From a virus, in the IMG/VR virus record IMGVR_UViG_3300045988_146036, positions 1 to 64,000 of that record: DNA of 64,000 nucleotides. One strand, 5' to 3'. Under the pieces are notes generated by a model, which searched no databases, was not told where the DNA came from, and saw only the letters and a list, made by a program, of their open reading frames with translations. This document shows positions 1,718 to 56,358 of the stretch, in pieces. The position numbers and the translations under genes are program-made. Every line of letters starts with the position of its first letter. Positions within the stretch are counted from its first letter, which is position 1.

Positions 1718-2203
1718 TTATTCAATATCAATGTACCCCCAAGGTGTTTCCTCTACCCCTTCGGAAATTTCATTATACACCTTATCATGCAAGCTTTTTG
1801 TAATTGCCTCATTGTCATAAACATATGAGATTAAATCTTTGCCATAAAACTTGCAATGTTTTACCTCGTAATCTAAGTCATTGCAGCTCCAACAAAGAAA
1901 GTTATAAGGTGTTGCATAAAACAATGCGTTGATAAGGTCTTTATCATAACTATCATAAGCATACTCCAAGAAGTTCATAGCGTTTTCAAGAGTTACACCG
2001 CCTCCCATATCACCGAAGGAAGTTTCTGTAATAACTCCTGCAACTCCGTCTACATTTTTAACATTAAAGATGTGTTTCAAGTCTACTTTCAACTCATCCC
2101 AATCTGCATAATTAAGCAAGTTAACATTATCTTCCTTGCCGTTAAGAGTAATGTTTACATTAATAAATGCGTCTGTTTTCATTGTTAAATACCTCGCTTT
2201 CAT
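1718..2203 (-). CDS. acidic hypothetical protein (161 aa; true start probably the second ATG, MKTDAF...)
   Basis: D/E-rich ORF; the first ATG lies only about 12 nt from the -10 of the promoter at 2215-2243, so the downstream ATG with a GAGGT RBS is the likelier start. Confidence 0.4.
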   Translation of the reverse strand: MKARYLTMKTDAFINVNITLNGKEDNVNLLNYADWDELKVDLKHIFNVKNVDGVAGVITETSFGDMGGGVTLENAMNFLEYAYDSYDKDLINALFYATPYNFLCWSCNDLDYEVKHCKFYGKDLISYVYDNEAITKSLHDKVYNEISEGVEETPWGYIDIE

Positions 2204-2385
2204 TTGATGTGTCTATTATAGCATCTTAAAAACCGTTTGTCAACACTTATTTTTGAAAAAGCTTCAAAAATTATTCGGTACAAACATATTGTTGCAAAAA
2301 CGCCGCTTATAAAAAGGTGCGCTTTGAATGTAAGAATCACAATAGCTGCCATACATAGAATTAAAATAAAAATAATATAATTCAT
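2200..2385 (-). CDS. small membrane protein (61 aa)
   Basis: N-terminal hydrophobic helix MNYIIFILILCMAAIVILTF; GGAGG RBS. Confidence 0.4.
   Translation of the reverse strand: MNYIIFILILCMAAIVILTFKAHLFISGVFATICLYRIIFEAFSKISVDKRFLRCYNRHIK
2215..2243 (-). promoter_or_regulatory. sigma-A type promoter TTGACA-N17-TATAAT
   Basis: -35 at 2238-2243 and -10 at 2215-2220 (minus strand). Confidence 0.55.
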
Positions 2386-2443: not shown

Positions 2444-3172
2444 TTACAAATAGCTGTCTGTATCTAAACAATAAAATGCATCATATAATAAGTAGAAATC
2501 TCCTGCTTCCTTTGTAAATTCCCTGTCAAAATGATAATGTCCAAAGAACCATTTAAACTTATGATTTTTTGTACATAAATGTTTATATAGCTTTTCTAAT
2601 TGTTTCGTAGAAATTGTTGGCTGCACACTGTCAATACATCTTGCTACATATAAATCTGTAAGAATAGATGTAGGACAACAATGTGTTATAATGCAGTCTA
2701 CATTATCAGAATTTTTTATAGCGTTTTCAACTTCTACATCTTCAATCGTTTCCTGTTCCCACCAGGATAAGTTTGGCGTTCTAAGAAATTTATCATGTGA
2801 CTCCGCTCCACCTAAAGCAAGGAATTTTTTGCCGTCAATGAGGAAGCTTTCACCACGTACTAAATGATAACATTTATTACATAGTTTTTGTACCTTACCT
2901 CCCCAACGCTTTGTAATTGGAAATTCTTTGTAATCATTCAATCTTGCAAAGTTTTCGTGGTTTCCGTCGCAGAAAAGCACTGTACATTTTAGTTTCTGTA
3001 TAAAAGCACGTAATCTTTTCTTCTCATCTAAAACACCCTTCTTTAAAGAAGAATGTGTCCATACCCAACCAAAATCTCCGCATATAATTAGGAAATCTTC
3101 TGATTTAAAATCAACTCCGTCAAACTTCCAAGTATCAAAATTTTGGTGGATGTCGCCTGTAATATAAATCAA
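2444..3172 (-). CDS. calcineurin-like metallophosphoesterase
   Basis: Motifs GDIH...GDFG...GNHE typical of the MPE superfamily. Confidence 0.65.
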   Translation of the reverse strand: MIYITGDIHQNFDTWKFDGVDFKSEDFLIICGDFGWVWTHSSLKKGVLDEKKRLRAFIQKLKCTVLFCDGNHENFARLNDYKEFPITKRWGGKVQKLCNKCYHLVRGESFLIDGKKFLALGGAESHDKFLRTPNLSWWEQETIEDVEVENAIKNSDNVDCIITHCCPTSILTDLYVARCIDSVQPTISTKQLEKLYKHLCTKNHKFKWFFGHYHFDREFTKEAGDFYLLYDAFYCLDTDSYL

Positions 3173-3658
3173 TTAGCACCCCTCCATATTAAGCTTTTTC
3201 CACTTCTTAATAATTCCCTTCAAAGGAAATACACAGTATCCCATTTTTTCCAAGGAAATAAGAATGTGTCTTTTATCTCTTAAAGCAGGTTTATCATGTA
3301 AATGTCCATGAATATTTACATCTTGCGAAAAACGCTTTAATGGTTTATGTGTAAAAATAATATTAATTCCCATATAGTCCATTGTAAATGAATCACATGC
3401 AAAGTCAAAGACTTTCATAAAAGCCTCGCAGGAATGTTTATCGTGATTTCCTCTTACAAGAATCTTTCTTCCATGCAATTTTTCAAGAACACTATAATCA
3501 TTTCGCCAAGAAATATCCCCTAAGAGAATGACAATATCTTCATCCTTTACCTGCTTATTCCAATTTCTAATAAGCTTTCGTTCATAATCTTTTGGGCGCA
3601 AACCGCTCTCAATCATCATATCATGGTTGAAGTGCGTGTCAGCTACAAGATAAATCAT
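3173..3658 (-). CDS. calcineurin-like metallophosphoesterase (second, tandem)
   Basis: Motifs ADTHFNHD...LGDI...GNHD; start abuts the stop of the upstream gene. Confidence 0.65.
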   Translation of the reverse strand: MIYLVADTHFNHDMMIESGLRPKDYERKLIRNWNKQVKDEDIVILLGDISWRNDYSVLEKLHGRKILVRGNHDKHSCEAFMKVFDFACDSFTMDYMGINIIFTHKPLKRFSQDVNIHGHLHDKPALRDKRHILISLEKMGYCVFPLKGIIKKWKKLNMEGC

Positions 3659-3897
3659 AATATCCCCCTTATCTTCAAATAAAGCTCCACAGGCATATAA
3701 ATAGACTGATTGTATGGGAGTAGCGTCACAGCCGTTAGCTGCTTCTTTTCCTCCGTTTCAAGCTCATTCCTATGTAGCTCGAATAAACAGTTAATTAAGG
3801 AATATAGTTGTTTAGTAGTTGTTACTTTTACAGTAATCATGTTACTGCCTCCTTTCTTTGATATATTAAGTATAACGCAATCTTCACAGAATGTCAA
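3655..3897 (-). CDS. hypothetical protein (80 aa)
   Basis: ORF with 4-nt overlap coupling. Confidence 0.35.
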   Translation of the reverse strand: MTFCEDCVILNISKKGGSNMITVKVTTTKQLYSLINCLFELHRNELETEEKKQLTAVTLLPYNQSIYMPVELYLKIRGIL

Positions 3898-46102: not shown

Positions 46103-46530
46103 TATGAACCATTCCTTACTTCTATTAAATTTATAGAAACTTCTCTGTACCCCATATAATTCATGGTAAATTGCATGGAGTCACTGTCAAATCTAACATA
46201 ATACCAATTATCGTCACCACCATTATCAGTACCATCATCTGCATAAATCCTTGCCCACTTAAATTTAAAAGCTCTATATTTACCTTTCACTTGCTTAAAA
46301 AATTCCTCCAACTTCCTGCCACCCGCAGGTGTCTTTTGGAATTTAAGTGTCCAAGTTCTTCTAGGCTCTGACCACTGCGCTCTACGCTGTTCGTTACCTG
46401 TCCACTTTTCATCAACAAGTGTATTAAATTCAAGAGTGTAGGAGTATAACTGTAAAGCAGTTATACCCCAAACTTCTAAATTGCCAGCATCTTTATAATC
46501 AGTATTTGTAGTTATATCTAAACCTAACAT
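46102..46530 (-). CDS. minor tail protein gpM-like
   Basis: Position immediately after the tape measure gene; 142 aa. Confidence 0.4.
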   Translation of the reverse strand: MLGLDITTNTDYKDAGNLEVWGITALQLYSYTLEFNTLVDEKWTGNEQRRAQWSEPRRTWTLKFQKTPAGGRKLEEFFKQVKGKYRAFKFKWARIYADDGTDNGGDDNWYYVRFDSDSMQFTMNYMGYREVSINLIEVRNGS

Positions 46531-49500
46531 TATGTAACACCTCTAATTGCTGTTCGCATACTTGTGCTTTTCTGAATATCATTTATTAGCTTACTCTTAA
46601 AGTTCTCGTATTGCTTATTAAATAGCTTCATATTAGCCTCTGGGTCAAGTGACTGGAATGTCATATTCAAAGTAACCCCTACTGTTGATGGCAATTCATT
46701 TGCCTGTTGCATAGGCGTTGTATTCTCTAGCTGACTATCCTCTGTTCTTACTTCGCCACCATCTGCGTATTTAAAACGTGGAAGTCTACCACTACGAATT
46801 GTTCTTCCATCACCAACGCTGTTTAAGCGGTCAAGGAAGTTTGTACCTAAAGCCTTAGCAGAACTTGCTTTTATTACATATTCCCCATTCGACAACCTAG
46901 CAGGAATACTATCACTCGTACCTGTACCTGCTCCACTAACAGCACCGCCATCTGCAAATGCCCAAAGCTTAGCTGCCTTACCAATTTGCATAATCATCAT
47001 CACAGTTTGTAAAACTATTCCGAATTTTCCAAGGCTACCACTTACAGCGGTTACGGCTGCCATTAAAGCAGGCATTGCGCTATTTCCTGTGGATTTAGTA
47101 ACACTGCTTAAATCATCAGTAGCACCAGTGCTTATCTTAGTAGCCGCTGTATCTTCTGTGATAGCACCTGTTGCAGAAATAACACCCTTATCAAATCTCT
47201 CTAGACCCTTAACAGAGCTAGATAAGTCTGGCATTGCTATGCCACTTCCAATAGTTGTGCTTTCAGTGTTATGCTGTCCTATGGCACTTCCTACTACATT
47301 TCCTACCACACCGCTGATACCTGTTGCACCACTAACACCAACACTTGTTACACCTGCTTTTGTCAAAATTTCCTGTATAACAGAATTTAAGGCTTGGAAA
47401 GAAGGTATTAACTGCCCATTAAGCTCCTGCTGTAAAGTAAGTCCTGCATCTGTAACATCTTGCTGGAACTTTGTCATATCAACTGTAACTCGTGATTCAA
47501 CATTTGTTACAACATCTGTATCCAAAGTATTTCTTCCAGAAATACTATCAAAGATATTGCCAAACAACTCATCAAAAGCTGTATCAAACATCTTCTTAGT
47601 AAAGGTCTGTAAGAAAGTATTTGCAAAATCTTGTAAAGCGTCTTTTGCTGATTTTTCTCCCCAGTAAATACTTTGAAAAGCATCTGATAAACCACTAACT
47701 AAGTTATCCTTAATTAAGGATTCTAATGGATGTACTTCGTCCATCAAATCTTTGATAGCTTGCTTAGCATCTACAATGTTTTGCAACATTTTACTTTTTG
47801 TTTCTTCGTCATTTGCGGCCTTTAATTCAGCAGTGTAATTAGCAATCGCAGTTCTATACTGGTCTATTACAGACTGCATATCAGAATGGCTTCTAATCCA
47901 TAGGTCGCTTTCTTTTTGGAAATCGCTATGAACCCCTGTTGAAAGCTGATAATCAAGATTTGCAGACTGTGCTTGTAATCCTACATTCTGAGCACGTGCA
48001 ATAGATTCTTGTGCATCACGCTCTAATTTTCGTAAGTATACTATCTGCTCTAATTGCTGTTTAGCAACTTGCATTTTGCTTATCAAGGTACTCCAAGCTT
48101 TTATATCGCTCGCGCTACCCTCTTTTTGCGCTTTTGCTAAACCTTTTTGCGCAGTTTCAAGCTCTGCGTATACCCTTGAAAAATCTGCTGCATACTCTTT
48201 GACTAAATTATTTTTAAAAGCTTCTTCTGATACGCCAACTATATCTTCATACTTGCCCTTTATATCATCTAATCTATCATACAGTTCTTTATACTTATCT
48301 TTTAAATCATTTACATATTCTATGTATTTTGTAATAGCAGATTCTTTAAGTTCATCTATCTTATTTGTGAATGATTCTACATCAGAATCTTGCCCTAAAG
48401 ATTTTGCAATCTCTCTGCGCTTTTCATAATTCTTAATTTCTGCCTCTATTATATCAGAATCGTATTTAAACTTGGTCTGCATATAATCTTGGGTAGAGGT
48501 TAAGTCAAATTTATAAGCACTTTCAAGCTGTAACTGCTGTTGCTTAATTGCTTCTTTTTCCGCTTTTAAAGCAGTTTCTAAAACTTTATAGGCGTTTTTA
48601 GCTTGATTTCTAGCTGCCTTATCTGCGGCAGCTTTTCCTTTAGCCCCTGTACCATTATCCGTAGGAATCTTAGGATTTTTTAATTGGAGATTTTTCTGTG
48701 CTTCTTTATAATTTTGTAAATCAAAATCTGGGATTATAGAATCATTTCCCTTTAAAACCTTTTGTGCATCTAATTGTATCTGCGCGCCATAATTCTTCTT
48801 AGCTTTATCCTCTGCGCTATCAAAGTATCTTCCCCATAAATCATCAAAATCTTTAACAGGATTCTTACCCCAAAGTTGGTTGGCTTCATAAGTAGCTGCG
48901 CCTACACCTAATGTTATTGCAGCTATAATGCCACCAGCTTTTGCAATATTGAATAAGTTCATTGCCTGTACTGCTTTCATTATGTTTGGAACTAAATCTT
49001 TAAAAGATGTAGCCAAACTTGCCAAAGAGGACATTATAACTCCCGCAGTTTCTATACCCTGTCCTAGAGAATGTATAAACCCATCACTCTCGTCCGTGGT
49101 AAGCCCAATAATTAAACCTATGCTTGTAAACACATCACCCATACCAGATAGGGCTTTTGTTGCAATATCTACCTTTCCAGTTAACTCGTCTGTGTTCTCT
49201 TTATTCTTTGACACTTGTTCATAATGTTGTTTTTCTGCCTGTGCTTTTCTTATCAAATCTTGAACTGTATTATCCACAGCTTTAGATTCTTTAACCAGCC
49301 CTTGTGAAGCTAATTCAGCAGCAGCATTTGCATATGTTGCAGCTTCATAAGCAGTTGCACCAAGCTTTTCATATTGTTTTTGTAATAATGTTAACTTACT
49401 GCTCCATTCAACAAGCTCTTTATTGCCAGAGGATTCTCCCAACATTTTTGATTGTCCTGCATAAGTTGCAGTGCCTTTAGTTAACTTTGAAGTTTCTGCT

Positions 49501-51341
49501 TTCTCATTATGCTGCTTAACTACGCTATTAACATAATCAGTAGCAGCATTTTTTGCCTTTTCATATGATAATCTAGACTGTTCAAGCTCTTTATTAAGTA
49601 ACCCTTGGCTTGTAGTTAACCCATCAGTACCACTCTTTAATGACCAAACATCTTTAGCCTTACTTGCGATATTCCAAGTTGCCCACATTATAACAACTTG
49701 TTCAAAGTTATTTGCAAGATACTCAAAAGCCTTAACAAGAGTCCCCCCAATAACTTCTACAACAGGTGCTAAAGCAGAGGCTACATTTTTAATTCCTTCC
49801 CAAAGTTTTACTACGTCGTCCCCAAATTCTTCCCAAGCCAAAATTATCTCAGGTTTTAATTGAAAATCATCCGTAAACAAAACTTTTCGCACGTCCATTA
49901 AGATACTTTTGGCAACATTCTGTAATGAATCCATTCCAGCTGCCTGTGCTAATGTATAACCCTCTTTTACTTGGTCAAACATGCCTTTTAAAGTATTGCC
50001 TGTTTCTAAGGAAGCATCCTTAAAACCTTCAATACGATTCATTAAGAACTTAAATAAGCCCTCGCTACTTTGTTTAGCTGCCTTAATATCACTATCGGTT
50101 AAGCCTAAAGCTGTTGCTAAGGTTGAACTTGAAGCTTGAATACCACCTTGAACTAAATCCCTTAATTCCTGTACTAGCTGCCTACCATCAAGTCCCATTG
50201 ATTTAACGGCATTTACACCTGTAACAGTAAATTGCTTAATTTCGTCAATATTCATTCCTGCACCTAAACCTGGGCCAAGCAAAGCTCTAAATGTAGTAAC
50301 AAGTTCCTCGCTTGTTGCAGAAGTTTTTGCAGCTTCTATGTTCAAATCTGCAATGATGGATTTTGAAATTCCCATTGCAGTGTTCCAATCCAAGCTTTTA
50401 TCATTAAGTTTTGTCATGGAACTTAGGATACCAGACATACCTACTTGTTCCGTTTCCATTTGCTGTGCAAACTGCCAACCAGGAGATACAATAGACTGCA
50501 TTAAGCTTACAATTCCTTGAATACCACTTTGCAGTACAAAAACTTTAAAGGAAATATCACTAAACATCTTCCAATTTTTTGAAAGACTGCCATATAAAGT
50601 ATTTGATTGTAGGGTTGCACCTGCAAGCCCACTTTCAAGCCCTTTAACTTGTGACATAGCAACATCAGTATTTATTGTGGGTGTATAGCTTAATTTATTT
50701 AACTGCTTATCTATTTTAGAAGTATCCGTTTTTACTGGCTTATATGACATTTTTAAAGTCTGCACACCAGAATTTAGTTGTGTTTGTTCAGCTTTTACTT
50801 TTAACTTCTCTAAATCCCCTGCCATCTGTACGGCTTGCTGTGATAATGTTTTTCTAGCATTTGTCATACTCTGTCCAGAACGTGTAGACATTCTTTCAAA
50901 AGCACGTGTCATTTGACTAAGTGCCTCTGAAACATTCTTATTCATTGACATTATACTAGCAGAAACTAAAGAAGTGTTTACCCCAACAGCAGTTGATAAC
51001 TTCTGTGTCGCCCTTATCTGCTGTTGCATGGAAGATTCAAGAGTTTTTGTCTGTGCATTTAAACTCTTGGTTAGCAAATTTCTTTGTGTTGCCATCTGCG
51101 CATTTATCTGATTTGTCTGCGCTCTAATTGTAGCGATAACATTTTTAGCAGTCATTGCTACTTTTGTGTCTATACTATTTAAAGATGAATTTACTTTTTT
51201 CTGCGATTTTTGGAATGAAGTAGAAAGCTGCTCTAATTGCTGGTCTGCCTTTGCCACGCCTTTTGTAAGATTACTAACATCTAAAGCTATACTAGCTGTT
51301 AGTTTACCTACATCTGCATTAGCCATCTTTTCTCCCTCCAA
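46530..51341 (-). CDS. tail tape measure protein (about 1600 aa; likely ATG start at 51326)
   Basis: Very long alpha-helical protein after the chaperone gene; GGAGGGAGAAAAG RBS then ATG. Confidence 0.75.
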   Translation of the reverse strand: MEGEKMANADVGKLTASIALDVSNLTKGVAKADQQLEQLSTSFQKSQKKVNSSLNSIDTKVAMTAKNVIATIRAQTNQINAQMATQRNLLTKSLNAQTKTLESSMQQQIRATQKLSTAVGVNTSLVSASIMSMNKNVSEALSQMTRAFERMSTRSGQSMTNARKTLSQQAVQMAGDLEKLKVKAEQTQLNSGVQTLKMSYKPVKTDTSKIDKQLNKLSYTPTINTDVAMSQVKGLESGLAGATLQSNTLYGSLSKNWKMFSDISFKVFVLQSGIQGIVSLMQSIVSPGWQFAQQMETEQVGMSGILSSMTKLNDKSLDWNTAMGISKSIIADLNIEAAKTSATSEELVTTFRALLGPGLGAGMNIDEIKQFTVTGVNAVKSMGLDGRQLVQELRDLVQGGIQASSSTLATALGLTDSDIKAAKQSSEGLFKFLMNRIEGFKDASLETGNTLKGMFDQVKEGYTLAQAAGMDSLQNVAKSILMDVRKVLFTDDFQLKPEIILAWEEFGDDVVKLWEGIKNVASALAPVVEVIGGTLVKAFEYLANNFEQVVIMWATWNIASKAKDVWSLKSGTDGLTTSQGLLNKELEQSRLSYEKAKNAATDYVNSVVKQHNEKAETSKLTKGTATYAGQSKMLGESSGNKELVEWSSKLTLLQKQYEKLGATAYEAATYANAAAELASQGLVKESKAVDNTVQDLIRKAQAEKQHYEQVSKNKENTDELTGKVDIATKALSGMGDVFTSIGLIIGLTTDESDGFIHSLGQGIETAGVIMSSLASLATSFKDLVPNIMKAVQAMNLFNIAKAGGIIAAITLGVGAATYEANQLWGKNPVKDFDDLWGRYFDSAEDKAKKNYGAQIQLDAQKVLKGNDSIIPDFDLQNYKEAQKNLQLKNPKIPTDNGTGAKGKAAADKAARNQAKNAYKVLETALKAEKEAIKQQQLQLESAYKFDLTSTQDYMQTKFKYDSDIIEAEIKNYEKRREIAKSLGQDSDVESFTNKIDELKESAITKYIEYVNDLKDKYKELYDRLDDIKGKYEDIVGVSEEAFKNNLVKEYAADFSRVYAELETAQKGLAKAQKEGSASDIKAWSTLISKMQVAKQQLEQIVYLRKLERDAQESIARAQNVGLQAQSANLDYQLSTGVHSDFQKESDLWIRSHSDMQSVIDQYRTAIANYTAELKAANDEETKSKMLQNIVDAKQAIKDLMDEVHPLESLIKDNLVSGLSDAFQSIYWGEKSAKDALQDFANTFLQTFTKKMFDTAFDELFGNIFDSISGRNTLDTDVVTNVESRVTVDMTKFQQDVTDAGLTLQQELNGQLIPSFQALNSVIQEILTKAGVTSVGVSGATGISGVVGNVVGSAIGQHNTESTTIGSGIAMPDLSSSVKGLERFDKGVISATGAITEDTAATKISTGATDDLSSVTKSTGNSAMPALMAAVTAVSGSLGKFGIVLQTVMMIMQIGKAAKLWAFADGGAVSGAGTGTSDSIPARLSNGEYVIKASSAKALGTNFLDRLNSVGDGRTIRSGRLPRFKYADGGEVRTEDSQLENTTPMQQANELPSTVGVTLNMTFQSLDPEANMKLFNKQYENFKSKLINDIQKSTSMRTAIRGVT

Positions 51342-51353
51342 TCAATTTTAGGG

Positions 51354-51602
51354 CTATTTTATATTACCGCCCCACTGTTTAAATAAATCTGGTGTCATTT
51401 TCGGCATATTCTTGACATCATTTTTTGCCTTATCTGGGTTCTCCACCTTTACATGATAATCCAATAAAGCAAATATTTTTGCAGGAGAGCTTTCCCAAAA
51501 TTCTGTATCGGACATTTTTAGAACTCTCTTTGCAAAATAGTAAAAAGCTACCCAATCCCACGAATCATCTTCTTCGTGGGAAAGGGCTTTCTTTAGTTTT
51601 TT
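51354..51602 (-). other. candidate -1 programmed ribosomal frameshift site (A AAA AAC) with 78-codon extension (gpGT-like)
   Basis: The chaperone ends ...AGT TCA AAA AAC TAA; the -1 frame is open for 78 codons from 51596 to the TAG at 51354-51356, 27 nt before the tape measure ATG. Confidence 0.6.
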
Positions 51603-51928
51603 GAACTCTTAGTTTCTTTAACTTCTGGCATTACCTTAGTTAAAGCTTCATTAACCAAACTAATCACATCTGGGATGTTTCTAGGAGTTAAATAACTTCC
51701 TAATTCTTTATCTGTCATTTTATCCTTACTTGACGCAAACCCTGCCTGTAAAATAGCTAAAACATCAGCAAATCTAGGTGTTCCAGTAAGTGCATCAAAA
51801 GCTTTTTGCACACTTCCAAATTTATCCTCTAACATTGCAAATGCGTTGAAATCATAAACTAATTCATAATCTTTTTCTCCAATTTGAAGAATAGTTCCTT
51901 GTGGTTTTAATAAGCTTAATTTTGACAT
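51593..51928 (-). CDS. tail assembly chaperone (gpG-like)
   Basis: Position between the major tail and tape measure genes; 111 aa; frameshift signal at its 3' end. Confidence 0.55.
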   Translation of the reverse strand: MSKLSLLKPQGTILQIGEKDYELVYDFNAFAMLEDKFGSVQKAFDALTGTPRFADVLAILQAGFASSKDKMTDKELGSYLTPRNIPDVISLVNEALTKVMPEVKETKSSKN

Positions 51929-51966
51929 ATTTATTACTCTCCTTTATGTATTAATAACCTAACTAT

Positions 51967-51995
51967 ATTATATCATATAATTAAGATTTTGTCAA
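51967..51995 (-). promoter_or_regulatory. sigma-A type promoter TTGACA-N17-TATAAT
   Basis: Minus strand reads TTGACAaaatcttaattatatgaTATAAT. Confidence 0.55.
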
Positions 51996-52002
51996 TACCC
52001 TT

Positions 52003-52037
52003 AAAAAAAATAAAATAAGGGTGTATAAAACACCCTT
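52003..52037 (-). terminator. rho-independent terminator after the major tail gene
   Basis: Hairpin aagggtgt-ataaa-acaccctt followed by TTATTTTATTTTTTTT on the minus strand. Confidence 0.55.
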
Positions 52038-52048
52038 AAAATTAATTA

Positions 52049-52633
52049 TTAAGCACCAATAGCTGATGCAGTAGCGTTAAGTGTCATATCCATCCACTTT
52101 CCTGCACCGTTTGTAGGCATTGCTACACCGCTGAAAGAGCAGTCACCAAAATCACCACTTGAATCGTTAATGGTGAAATCTGGAGCTTCACTTAATCTGC
52201 ACTTATAAAGCACTACATGGGCATCTTTTACAGTGCCGTCTGTACTTGCATAATCCCATTTACCCTCTAGTTTAAAGTAACCTGGGGTAGCATTTGCTGC
52301 TGTTATGCTATAAGTAACTTTTTCAGTCGCCTCTGTGCCATCAGTAGTTACCTTACCACCTAAGATACACTGTAATCCACTATAACTTATTACACTGTTA
52401 GTAACAGTAAAGTTAATACTTGTAGTACGTGCATAGTTATCCATTACAGTTGAATCACCATAAAGTGTTTTAGAAACCATTTCTGGTGAAACCTGTAAAG
52501 AAAGGACACCTGCTAAATCTACGAACTCACCATAAGTAGTTTCACCATCTGTTGGGTCGGTTAATAGAGGTGCAACTTTTACGTCACTTAACTCCATTAA
52601 AACTACTCTTGTGTCAAGAATCTTTCCTGCCAT
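52049..52633 (-). CDS. major tail protein
   Basis: 194 aa, Thr/Ser/Gly-rich beta-rich protein upstream of chaperone and tape measure; terminator downstream. Confidence 0.55.
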   Translation of the reverse strand: MAGKILDTRVVLMELSDVKVAPLLTDPTDGETTYGEFVDLAGVLSLQVSPEMVSKTLYGDSTVMDNYARTTSINFTVTNSVISYSGLQCILGGKVTTDGTEATEKVTYSITAANATPGYFKLEGKWDYASTDGTVKDAHVVLYKCRLSEAPDFTINDSSGDFGDCSFSGVAMPTNGAGKWMDMTLNATASAIGA

Positions 52634-52649
52634 ATGCTTTCAATCCTTT

Positions 52650-53045
52650 CTAATAATTCAATGAAAGCCCTGTTACATTAAGTACCCAATTCGCCCTGCC
52701 CCCAGTATCCGTTGTAAGATACGTTGGTGGGTTCATTGGCCTTACTGTAAAACGCTTTCCGTTAGCGTCAACCATAAAACCATCTTTATTTAAAAGATTA
52801 TATATATTTAATGCAATTTCTTGCGCTTTAGAACTAAGCCTATTCCTTATTCTTATCTGGCAATTAAAGTTCACACTATTACGTGCGCGCCCTTTAATGC
52901 TAAAAGCCTGCAATTCTGTTACACATATTGCATCTGGTATTTCTGTCCTTTGAGGAAAAAGGTTTACAAAAATATTCTTATCCACTATGCCATATTCATT
53001 TGTTTCCAAAAAGCCTGCCATACTTTCCGCGAACATTTTCCACAC
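52650..53045 (-). CDS. tail completion / head-tail joining protein
   Basis: Position. Confidence 0.35.
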   Translation of the reverse strand: MWKMFAESMAGFLETNEYGIVDKNIFVNLFPQRTEIPDAICVTELQAFSIKGRARNSVNFNCQIRIRNRLSSKAQEIALNIYNLLNKDGFMVDANGKRFTVRPMNPPTYLTTDTGGRANWVLNVTGLSLNY

Positions 53046-55341: not shown

Positions 55342-56358
55342 TTAAGCAGTTTGAATAACTACTCCGTGAGTCGGATTCAGTACATCTGTACCCCAAATTC
55401 CGTACCATGCAATTTTCATTTCACGTCCGAAATCTTCGGTAGCATCTGTTCTAATTTCTGGTGCTAAGTTTTCAGCTAGGCAATAGTAATCTTCACCGAA
55501 AATTATAGCGGTATATACATCTTCTTGATTTTTACCTTTTGCTTTTAAGTCAGCATCATATCCTAATTCACTCTCTGCTGCTGCACCGTTAGGCATCATA
55601 GTTGTAACAACGAAACGAACGTCGTCAATACGTCCAATCTCACCATTAAACAGTTGTTCTGGTGCGCCATAGTTACTAGCATTTATCCATGCGGCATCGT
55701 CCCTTAAAGTACGTGCTTGGTGCGGATGAATTATAGCTACATAATATCCGTTGATTTTCGGAACATTGTTAGTAGTCAGTACCTCTACTGCATCTTTAAC
55801 AGTTGTTACTGAGAAATCATTTTTACCTGCTTCAATTTCGCCAATAGCATCAATTTTAGCAGCACCCTTTTCTCTACCAAAAAGTTTAGAGGTTCCAGTA
55901 CCACCTTTTACAGCAGCACTGCACAATTCTTTCTCAATAGTCTGCACATAGTTACGTGACAGTTGACGCATAGCTACTTCTAATTCGTCTACAAAAGAGA
56001 AGCGAATTGCTGCTTCGGTAATCATCACAGCAGTACCATGTTCAACAACTTTAATACTCTTTGTGCTAGAGCTTAAAGTTTGTGTCTTGATGTGTTTACC
56101 TTCTTCTAATGGTTCAGAAAGTTTTAAGTTGTTGTAAGTCAACATCTTAATTTCATTACCTGGGTTTGTAGTCAGCTCGGTTTTACGTGCTGCAAACTCA
56201 TAGAAGGTATATACAGGTTCTGCCATAAACAGAATTTCTTTGCTTAATACTGGGATTAAAGAATTAACCAGTTGAACAGCAGTACCACTATCTAATTCAG
56301 TTTCAGTAGTTTGAATGATAGTATTAATTTCATTTCCTAGCGGCCATCTTGTTGCCAT
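55342..56358 (-). CDS. major capsid protein (HK97-like fold)
   Basis: 338 aa after the scaffold gene; typical size and composition. Confidence 0.65.
   Translation of the reverse strand: MATRWPLGNEINTIIQTTETELDSGTAVQLVNSLIPVLSKEILFMAEPVYTFYEFAARKTELTTNPGNEIKMLTYNNLKLSEPLEEGKHIKTQTLSSSTKSIKVVEHGTAVMITEAAIRFSFVDELEVAMRQLSRNYVQTIEKELCSAAVKGGTGTSKLFGREKGAAKIDAIGEIEAGKNDFSVTTVKDAVEVLTTNNVPKINGYYVAIIHPHQARTLRDDAAWINASNYGAPEQLFNGEIGRIDDVRFVVTTMMPNGAAAESELGYDADLKAKGKNQEDVYTAIIFGEDYYCLAENLAPEIRTDATEDFGREMKIAWYGIWGTDVLNPTHGVVIQTA

Follow-up and report, generated by a model that had tools for sequence, protein, structure and literature searches.

A probable lambda G/GT-type -1 frameshift site in the tail assembly chaperone gene of a long-tailed metagenome phage

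Described tail chaperone frameshifts and the locus in the window

A -1 frameshift in the expression of the tail chaperone genes, conserved among double-stranded DNA (dsDNA) tailed phages, has been on record since 1993 (Levin et al., 1993; Xu, Hendrix and Duda, 2004; reviewed in PMC5009743), so that the concept underlying the present analysis is not new and its novelty is low. In phage lambda, which requires G and GT at a ratio of about 30:1 (PMC5009743), gpG and gpGT are encoded by an overlapping pair of open reading frames (ORFs) situated between the major tail and the tape-measure genes, the second ORF lies in the -1 frame without a start of its own, and an X_XXY_YYZ heptamer is found near the end of G. 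The same organisation is present on the minus strand of a 64,000-nt stretch of viral DNA (IMG/VR record IMGVR_UViG_3300045988_146036, positions 1 to 64,000; hereafter the window) from a long-tailed (siphovirus-type) phage known from metagenomes, and here, too, a short product, G, and a long product, GT, are predicted. Our analysis makes it very likely that the heptamer A_AAA_AAC at the end of the tail assembly chaperone ORF of this phage is the site of a lambda G/GT-type -1 programmed ribosomal frameshift, from which we infer the formation of a GT fusion protein. In gene order, frame arrangement, heptamer register, conservation and coding constraint, the site agrees with the class that Xu, Hendrix and Duda (2004) defined. 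In contrast to lambda, the heptamer is A_AAA_AAC instead of G_GGA_AAG, it directly adjoins the stop codon of G, and a strong hairpin comes next. Moreover, no sequence similarity of the window proteins to lambda G or T was detected, and the likeness lies in the organisation and, weakly, in the fold. The locus comprises the following features.

51593..51928, minus strand: G, the tail assembly chaperone ORF, 111 aa followed by a TAA stop, with the C-terminus ...KETKSSKN
51596..51602, minus strand: slippery heptamer A_AAA_AAC, zero-frame codons AAA (Lys110) and AAC (Asn111)
51593..51595, minus strand: TAA stop of G, adjoining the heptamer; the -1 frame reads CUA-AAG (Leu-Lys) here
51354..51596, minus strand: T, the -1-frame extension, 80 sense codons and a TAG stop (51356..51354)
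51513..51515, minus strand: first start codon of the T frame, ATG, at T residue 28, where gene callers begin a 53-aa ORF (51354..51515)
51453..51560, minus strand: conserved T core WDWVAFYYFAKRVLKMSDTEFWESSPAKIFALLDYH, with the highest conservation in the G-T region
52049..52633, minus strand: major tail (tube) protein gene, upstream neighbour of G in the ORF list (PHROG 4971 'major tail protein', E 8.5e-20)
46530..51326, minus strand: tape measure protein gene, downstream neighbour, about 1598 aa from the ATG at 51326

The gene order on the minus strand is thus major tail protein, G, T and tape measure, with G and T as an overlapping pair. The 3' end of G reads AAA GAA ACT AAG AGT TCA AAA AAC TAA, and, as stated in the initial annotation of this DNA, A_AAA_AAC (51602..51596) immediately precedes the stop codon of the chaperone (51595..51593). 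The -1 frame is shut by a TAA at 51611..51609, opens at 51608 and then remains open as far as the TAG at 51356..51354. Since this upstream TAA closes the -1 frame, the two frames can be joined only within a 13-nt overlap, most of which is filled by the heptamer in zero-frame register. The long open -1 frame that had been proposed was therefore found, as was its end 27 nt before the tape-measure ATG at 51326, although it spans 80 codons rather than the 78 given, the sole error of that annotation. Within this frame no ATG, GTG or TTG occurs before 51515, i.e. none in the first 27 codons after the slip site. After a slip on the heptamer, the extension would begin with LKKALSHEEDD and read LKKALSHEEDDSWDWVAFYYFAKRVLKMSDTEFW...QWGGNIK, giving a predicted GT fusion of 191 aa, whose junction peptide upon Glu-C digestion is predicted to be TKSSKNLKKALSHE. 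Two other ways of extending G were rejected. Readthrough of the UAA would end early, with the zero frame shut again after 15 codons, and the +1 frame is open for 18 codons in a near-identical locus (L001) and for 18-29 codons in relatives, with translations that lack visible similarity.

According to the proposed mechanism, most ribosomes on the chaperone mRNA would terminate at the UAA and release the 111-aa G, while a minority would shift back by 1 nt on A_AAA_AAC. In such a tandem slip the peptidyl-tRNA-Lys would move from AAA to AAA and the tRNA-Asn from AAC to AAA, and the slipped ribosomes would then read CUA-AAG and the following codons in the -1 frame, thereby adding the 80-residue T domain to form the 191-aa GT. 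The slip would probably be promoted by the hairpin 8 nt downstream and by the stop codon that adjoins the heptamer. If the proteins behave as they do in lambda, the tape-measure protein may be coated by many G and few GT molecules, and the T domain may bring in the major tail protein for polymerisation of a tube of the correct length; neither G nor GT would stay in the virion. A weak heptamer aided by a hairpin would fit a product that is needed in small amounts.

The closest annotated case was found in Paenibacillus larvae phages such as Bob (OP503972, Gochnauervirinae), in which the 'tail assembly chaperone' is annotated as a two-piece coding sequence (CDS). As in the window, an in-register A_AAA_AAC is present in the overlap, here 3 nt before the G stop (GGA AAA AAC CAG TAA), and it is followed after 4-6 nt by a hairpin of -18.6 kcal/mol, the 3' arm of which lies on Trp-Asp codons. 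The T domain is homologous as well (VDWDVLYYF...FWKST...), with a tblastn E value of 0.6 when taken alone and with motifs that align. The annotated CDS length, by which, rather than by the join coordinates, this was judged, fits a -1 slip anywhere in the overlap. Different from the window are the position of the heptamer one codon away from the stop, the genome size (about 44 kb versus about 100 kb) and the low sequence identity. Likewise, in the Clostridium phages CWou-2020b (CP063968; L029, 1485..1703) and HM T (KU517658; L030, 1470..1682) the fusion was matched in two pieces in two frames, G being accompanied by a homologous T in the -1 frame. These two phages share the common junction TGGGGGAATAG, which lacks a canonical X_XXY_YYZ heptamer. 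While HM T has its T annotated as a hypothetical protein of its own (HMT_36, 42 aa), CWou-2020b carries no annotation for it, and in both phages an unannotated frameshift probably takes place on the G-run beside the stop.

The heptamer A_AAA_AAC is used outside of tail chaperones in the insA-insB' -1 frameshift of IS1 (Sekine and Ohtsubo, 1989; Escoubas et al., 1991), which forms the cluster A_AAA_AAC_1 (PMC4066793). In IS1 it is a proven -1 site of low efficiency (PMC4066793) that yields a low-abundance fusion on bacterial ribosomes, demonstrating that A_AAA_AAC works in bacteria, albeit at low efficiency. In contrast to the locus in the window, the product is a transposase and the proteins are unrelated to the phage chaperone, and whereas a hairpin follows the heptamer here, no downstream stimulator is established for IS1 (PMC4066793). 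For the haloarchaeal tailed virus HCTV-2, too, A_AAA_AAC has been reported as the place of the g-t shift (Sencilo et al., 2013, cited in PMC5009743), where it serves the expression of the tail chaperone g-t, although in an archaeal host with a different translation apparatus.

Conservation of the predicted slip site and of the T frame

For the comparison with homologues, about 25 metagenome loci were collected by protein searches and contig look-ups and assigned to 11 diverged lineages, in which G is 53-58% identical to that of the window where this was measured. The named sources of these loci are human gut or faecal, and many of the contigs are 82-104 kb long. No DNA-level match to cultured phages was obtained by blastn of positions 51200..52700 against INPHARED, and a scan of 185,579 species reference genomes with a G profile revealed no prophage or host relative. 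A Firmicute host is suggested by strong GGAGG-type ribosome-binding sites and by the kinship with phages of Clostridium and Paenibacillus.

In all 11 lineages G ends with ...AAA AAC TAA, and the heptamer, its register and its adjacency to the stop are invariant, while the bases preceding AAA AAC TAA vary (TC, GG, AC, GC, GA, CA and others). Accordingly, Lys110 and Asn111 do not vary in the G alignment, although the rest of the C-terminal tail does. Each of the 11 lineages also keeps the -1 frame open, over 82-101 codons, and encodes a homologous T in it, so that the comparison proposed with the initial annotation came out in favour of its G/GT-type architecture, to which the gene order, the register, the 13-nt overlap, the lack of a start of T's own and the downstream hairpin also contribute. 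A more distant relative on a 39.7-kb viral contig (L010; IMGVR_UViG_3300029822_000030, 2740..2830) has a G that is 34% identical and a T domain in the -1 frame with the motifs WDWDFLYY...MSEEKF...LKALLDVH. About 17 codons ahead of its G stop, the overlap contains GAG GGA AAA AAG, in which both G_GGA_AAA and A_AAA_AAG are in register, and this sequence indicates that the function is kept while the slip site differs.

The T core has the consensus WDWVAFYYFAKRVLKMSDxEFWxSxPAKIFALLDYH, with pairwise amino acid identities of 0.74-0.97 that represent the highest conservation in the G-T region. At the nucleotide level, identity in the core amounts to 0.76-0.94 at codon positions 1 and 2 compared to 0.58-0.75 at position 3. 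The 27 codons that precede the first ATG of T, which include an invariant W-x-W...YY motif, show this coding pattern of the -1 frame as well, and the substitution patterns indicate purifying selection on T in that frame, beginning at the slip site. In the window the duplex energies with the anti-Shine-Dalgarno sequence are -4.9 kcal/mol upstream of the T ATG at 51515, -9.6 kcal/mol at the G start and -10.9 kcal/mol at the tape-measure start. Upstream of the T ATG they range from -1.5 to -4.9 kcal/mol in five of the six lineages scored, compared to -7.4 to -11.1 kcal/mol at the G and tape-measure starts, and no conserved Shine-Dalgarno sequence precedes the internal ATG of T in these six lineages. 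Since the N-terminal part of T is conserved as coding sequence but has neither a start codon nor a conserved ribosome-binding site, it would be translatable only by ribosomes coming from G.

This evidence bears directly on the alternative that T is an independent small gene of 53 aa starting at the internal ATG (51515) and that the heptamer is incidental. Such a gene would agree with the 53-66-aa ORFs that gene callers place at the T position in related loci, with the 37 database homologues, which are all unnamed ORFs of 46-109 aa, and with the invariant Met at this ATG. However, it would explain neither the -1-frame coding pattern and the invariant W-x-W...YY in the 27 codons before the ATG nor the invariance of the heptamer and its register, and the T frame offers no start codon further upstream and no conserved Shine-Dalgarno sequence before the ATG. 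In addition, the homologous T of the Paenibacillus phages is annotated as part of a joined CDS. We thus regard an independent T without frameshifting as unlikely. Additional independent initiation of a short T' protein alongside the frameshift could nevertheless occur, as judged from the invariant Met.

The frequency of slippery motifs was assessed in 72 gene-like minus-strand ORFs with 18,381 in-frame heptamer positions. Any X_XXY_YYZ heptamer occupies 0.94% of these positions, and at this background about 4% of four-codon overlaps would contain a heptamer by chance. A coincidence of an accidental heptamer with an accidentally open non-coding frame might be considered on these grounds, since such heptamers are not rare in an AT-rich genome and since a long open -1 frame follows the stop in 19 of the 72 ORFs, mostly where the next gene begins. 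In-frame A_AAA_AAC, however, was present only once among the 72 ORFs, namely at the G stop, and AAAAAAC is depleted in the whole window on both strands, with 14 copies versus 39.6 +/- 5.4 expected from dinucleotide-preserving shuffles. This depletion together with the single in-register copy would fit selection against accidental slippery sites, in spite of which heptamer and register at the end of G are invariant. Unusual about the locus, as far as its sequence tells, is the combination of a heptamer in the overlap, a -1 ORF without a 5' start codon and the comparative evidence. Given that motif, register and open frame are kept over 11 diverged lineages, that T appears to be under purifying selection and that both parts match profiles of tail assembly chaperone (TAC) families, a mere coincidence is effectively refuted by the comparative data.

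The downstream hairpin and possible modes of slippage

The search for a downstream stem-loop that had been suggested along with the slip site was successful and yielded one candidate.

51550..51587, minus strand: candidate stimulatory hairpin, starting 8 nt 3' of the heptamer, -24.2 kcal/mol

It consists of a 4-bp outer stem (GCCC/GGGU), an internal loop of 2 nt on each side, a 9-bp inner stem (UCCCACGAA/UUCGUGGGA) and an 8-nt loop, and its stability in the window corresponds to a z score of -6.1 relative to dinucleotide shuffles. Because the 3' arm of the hairpin overlies the invariant Trp-Asp-Trp codons, covariation analysis has little power, and each lineage was therefore compared with its own synonymous-codon null, in which the 54 nt downstream were set against 300 sequences that left the T peptide unchanged but had their synonymous codons resampled. 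In this test the hairpin of the window reached a z score of -3.6, beyond all of the 81 control segments from other genes of the window (mean z -0.37, minimum -2.56). Nine of the 11 lineages fold better than the synonymous null (z -1.7 to -5.1; mean over all 11, -2.5), and their stems begin 6-9 nt after the heptamer and differ in sequence. In one lineage (L024) the 3' arm sits in an inserted peptide segment and not on the Trp codons. No Rfam family matched positions 51300..51750 at E <= 1, and nothing resembling the upstream Shine-Dalgarno stimulator of dnaX is conserved in the 12 nt 5' of the heptamer across lineages. Taken together, the folding results suggest that a stimulatory hairpin is likely present, though not universal.

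Several observations weigh against a G/GT-type frameshift at this site. The hairpin is weak in two of the 11 lineages (the L002-type and L028), which show no notable structure, and the RNAalifold consensus reaches only -5.5 kcal/mol with one compensatory pair and almost no covariation. A_AAA_AAC shifts poorly in Escherichia coli (PMC4066793, PMC5009743), and the Met at the internal ATG of T is, as mentioned, invariant. Furthermore, neither protein of the window reaches the gathering cut-off of a chaperone family in Pfam, the G of the window scoring 19.8 bits (E 8.3e-4; cut-off 27.8) against PF11836 Phage_TAC_11 ('GTA-gp10') and its T 12.7 bits (E 0.18; cut-off 23.4) against PF09550 Phage_TAC_6. 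Within the G family, 12 of 13 members match Phage_TAC_11, with a best E value of 3.2e-8, and precomputed PF11836 matches are carried by the G relatives P0002-P0005 and P0008; correspondingly, seven of eight T sequences match Phage_TAC_6 at E <= 1, with a best E value of 5.8e-4. Since the window proteins fall below the curated cut-offs while their relatives are at or near them, G and T are best described, on the basis of these profile scores, as distant members of the Phage_TAC_11 and Phage_TAC_6 families, respectively. G also matches PHROG 2115 'tail protein' (E 9e-18) and, weakly, PHROG 183 'tail chaperone protein'. Its AlphaFold2 model shows a beta-hairpin followed by five helices (pLDDT 70, pTM 0.62); the top fold matches of G, though weak, are to tail assembly chaperones, and a sequence search of the PDB with the G profile gave no meaningful match.

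The fusion could also arise during transcription, if RNA polymerase added an A in the A6 run and some mRNAs consequently carried G and T in one frame. A homopolymeric A run is indeed present, with 6 A's in the window and 7 in four lineages, and an inserted A would lead to a nearly identical fusion. Productive transcriptional slippage in bacteria, however, reportedly takes place on runs of about 9 or more A or T (Baranov et al., 2005, cited in PMC4066793), compared to which the 6-7 A's found here are too short. Moreover, polymerase slippage would require neither the invariant codon register nor the invariant final C of the heptamer, the hairpins are enriched at the canonical ribosomal spacing of 6-9 nt, and in the distant relative L010 a GGG stands before A_AAA_AAG, which is a heptamer of the classic ribosomal type. 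Slippage of the polymerase thus appears very improbable as the source of GT.

More difficult to separate from a tandem slip on the heptamer is a 'shifty stop', which would give the same product one step later. In this case the tRNA-Asn alone would be in the P site on AAC while the UAA in the A site is slow to be decoded, the tRNA would re-pair to AAA with CUA read next, and competition with the release factor, instead of tandem slippage, would set the G:GT ratio. Consistent with this, the UAA adjoins the heptamer in all 11 lineages, and the candidate slip motif is at most one codon away from the stop in the Paenibacillus phage Bob and the Clostridium phages CWou-2020b and HM T. As the predicted protein is identical, the sequence cannot separate the two modes. 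On the other hand, the whole heptamer is invariant, including its first A's, which are needed for tandem slippage only, and L010 would slip about 17 codons before its stop, indicating that the stop is not required in the wider family. The UAA may also be kept for another reason, be it the conserved Leu-Lys of T that CUA-AAR encodes or an overlap of several constraints in this DNA. A 'shifty stop' hence seems possible but clearly the less probable mode compared to tandem slippage on the heptamer. Somewhat more tentative still is the suggestion that the stop adjacency and the fixed-spacing hairpin together define a termination-coupled 'shifty stop' variant of the G/GT system, in which competition between release factor and tRNA-Asn slippage would set G:GT. 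If this variant existed, it would tie the stoichiometry of tail assembly to the termination capacity of the host and would explain the preference of the clade for the weak A_AAA_AAC over A_AAA_AAG.

Annotation of T, neighbouring elements and phage context

Irrespective of the mode of slippage, the predicted frameshift at this site appears unannotated in this phage clade, because the T homologues in the database form 37 clusters without a single name, and all of these are fragments of 46-71 aa, with the exception of one chimera. Some of the fragments start at the internal ATG and others further upstream. The exception (P0013, 109 aa, from a 1627-nt ENA contig) was rejected as a T homologue, as only its 45 N-terminal residues come from the called T ORF, and these are joined to an unrelated AcrB-like fragment (Pfam PF00873) in what looks like a chimeric metagenome assembly. 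In every related contig and database entry examined T is thus called as an orphan 'hypothetical protein' of 46-71 aa and the fusion is missing, and recognising the site would allow the tail modules of a clade of metagenome phages of about 90-104 kb to be annotated correctly. It would also add a well-conserved low-GC case of a stop-adjacent A_AAA_AAC with a hairpin that is useful for the training of frameshift predictors; PRFect has been reported to do worse on low-GC phages (PMC10885494).

Downstream of T, the start of the tape-measure gene is likelier the ATG at 51326 than the TTG at 51341 given in the mechanical ORF list, as suggested by the ribosome-binding motif GGAGGGAG located 7-8 nt upstream of this ATG. 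Homologues of the tape-measure protein start at the equivalent Met/Leu-Ala-Asp, some of them with a TTG, and the genes that follow T in the relatives encode 1391-1602 aa. The gap between the T stop and the tape-measure gene is 56-57 nt in relatives (L002, about 2154..2215; L004, about 3606..3665) and holds, in this type of locus, a terminator-like hairpin with a T-run, e.g. GACAGTCGAG...CTCGACTTTTTTT, whereas the 27-nt gap of the window is without such a hairpin.

Upstream of G, two elements lie between the major tail gene and the chaperone.

52016..52038, minus strand: intrinsic-terminator-like hairpin and T-run, 9-pair stem TAAGGGTG...CACCCTTA followed by TTTTATTTTT, 3' of the major tail gene
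51967..51995, minus strand: sigma-70-type promoter-like site just upstream of G, TTGACA, 17 nt and TGnTATAAT (extended -10), with 12 of 12 hexamer positions matching the consensus

Since the terminator-like hairpin is followed directly upstream of G by a perfect promoter match, the chaperone and tape-measure genes may have a promoter of their own, separate from that of the highly expressed tube gene.

Across the window, the minus strand carries nearly every ORF that reaches 120 aa, and the few plus-strand exceptions all overlap longer minus-strand ORFs. A search for tRNA genes in the window found none, and together this fits a single long direction of transcription in a phage of about 100 kb. 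The major capsid protein (window positions 55342..56358, minus strand) shares 51.6% identity with its counterpart in Bacillus phage BCD7 (93.8 kb; L032), the nearest cultured relative by this protein. BCD7 was rejected as a comparator for G and T, because its annotated tail module is of the contractile type, with a sheath and two tube proteins, and has no comparable G/T pair at the corresponding position. Between the head genes and the tube gene of the window no sheath is annotated or was detected with PHROG profiles. Given the capsid match to BCD7 but the differing tail modules, the head and tail modules of the window look mosaic at the sequence level.

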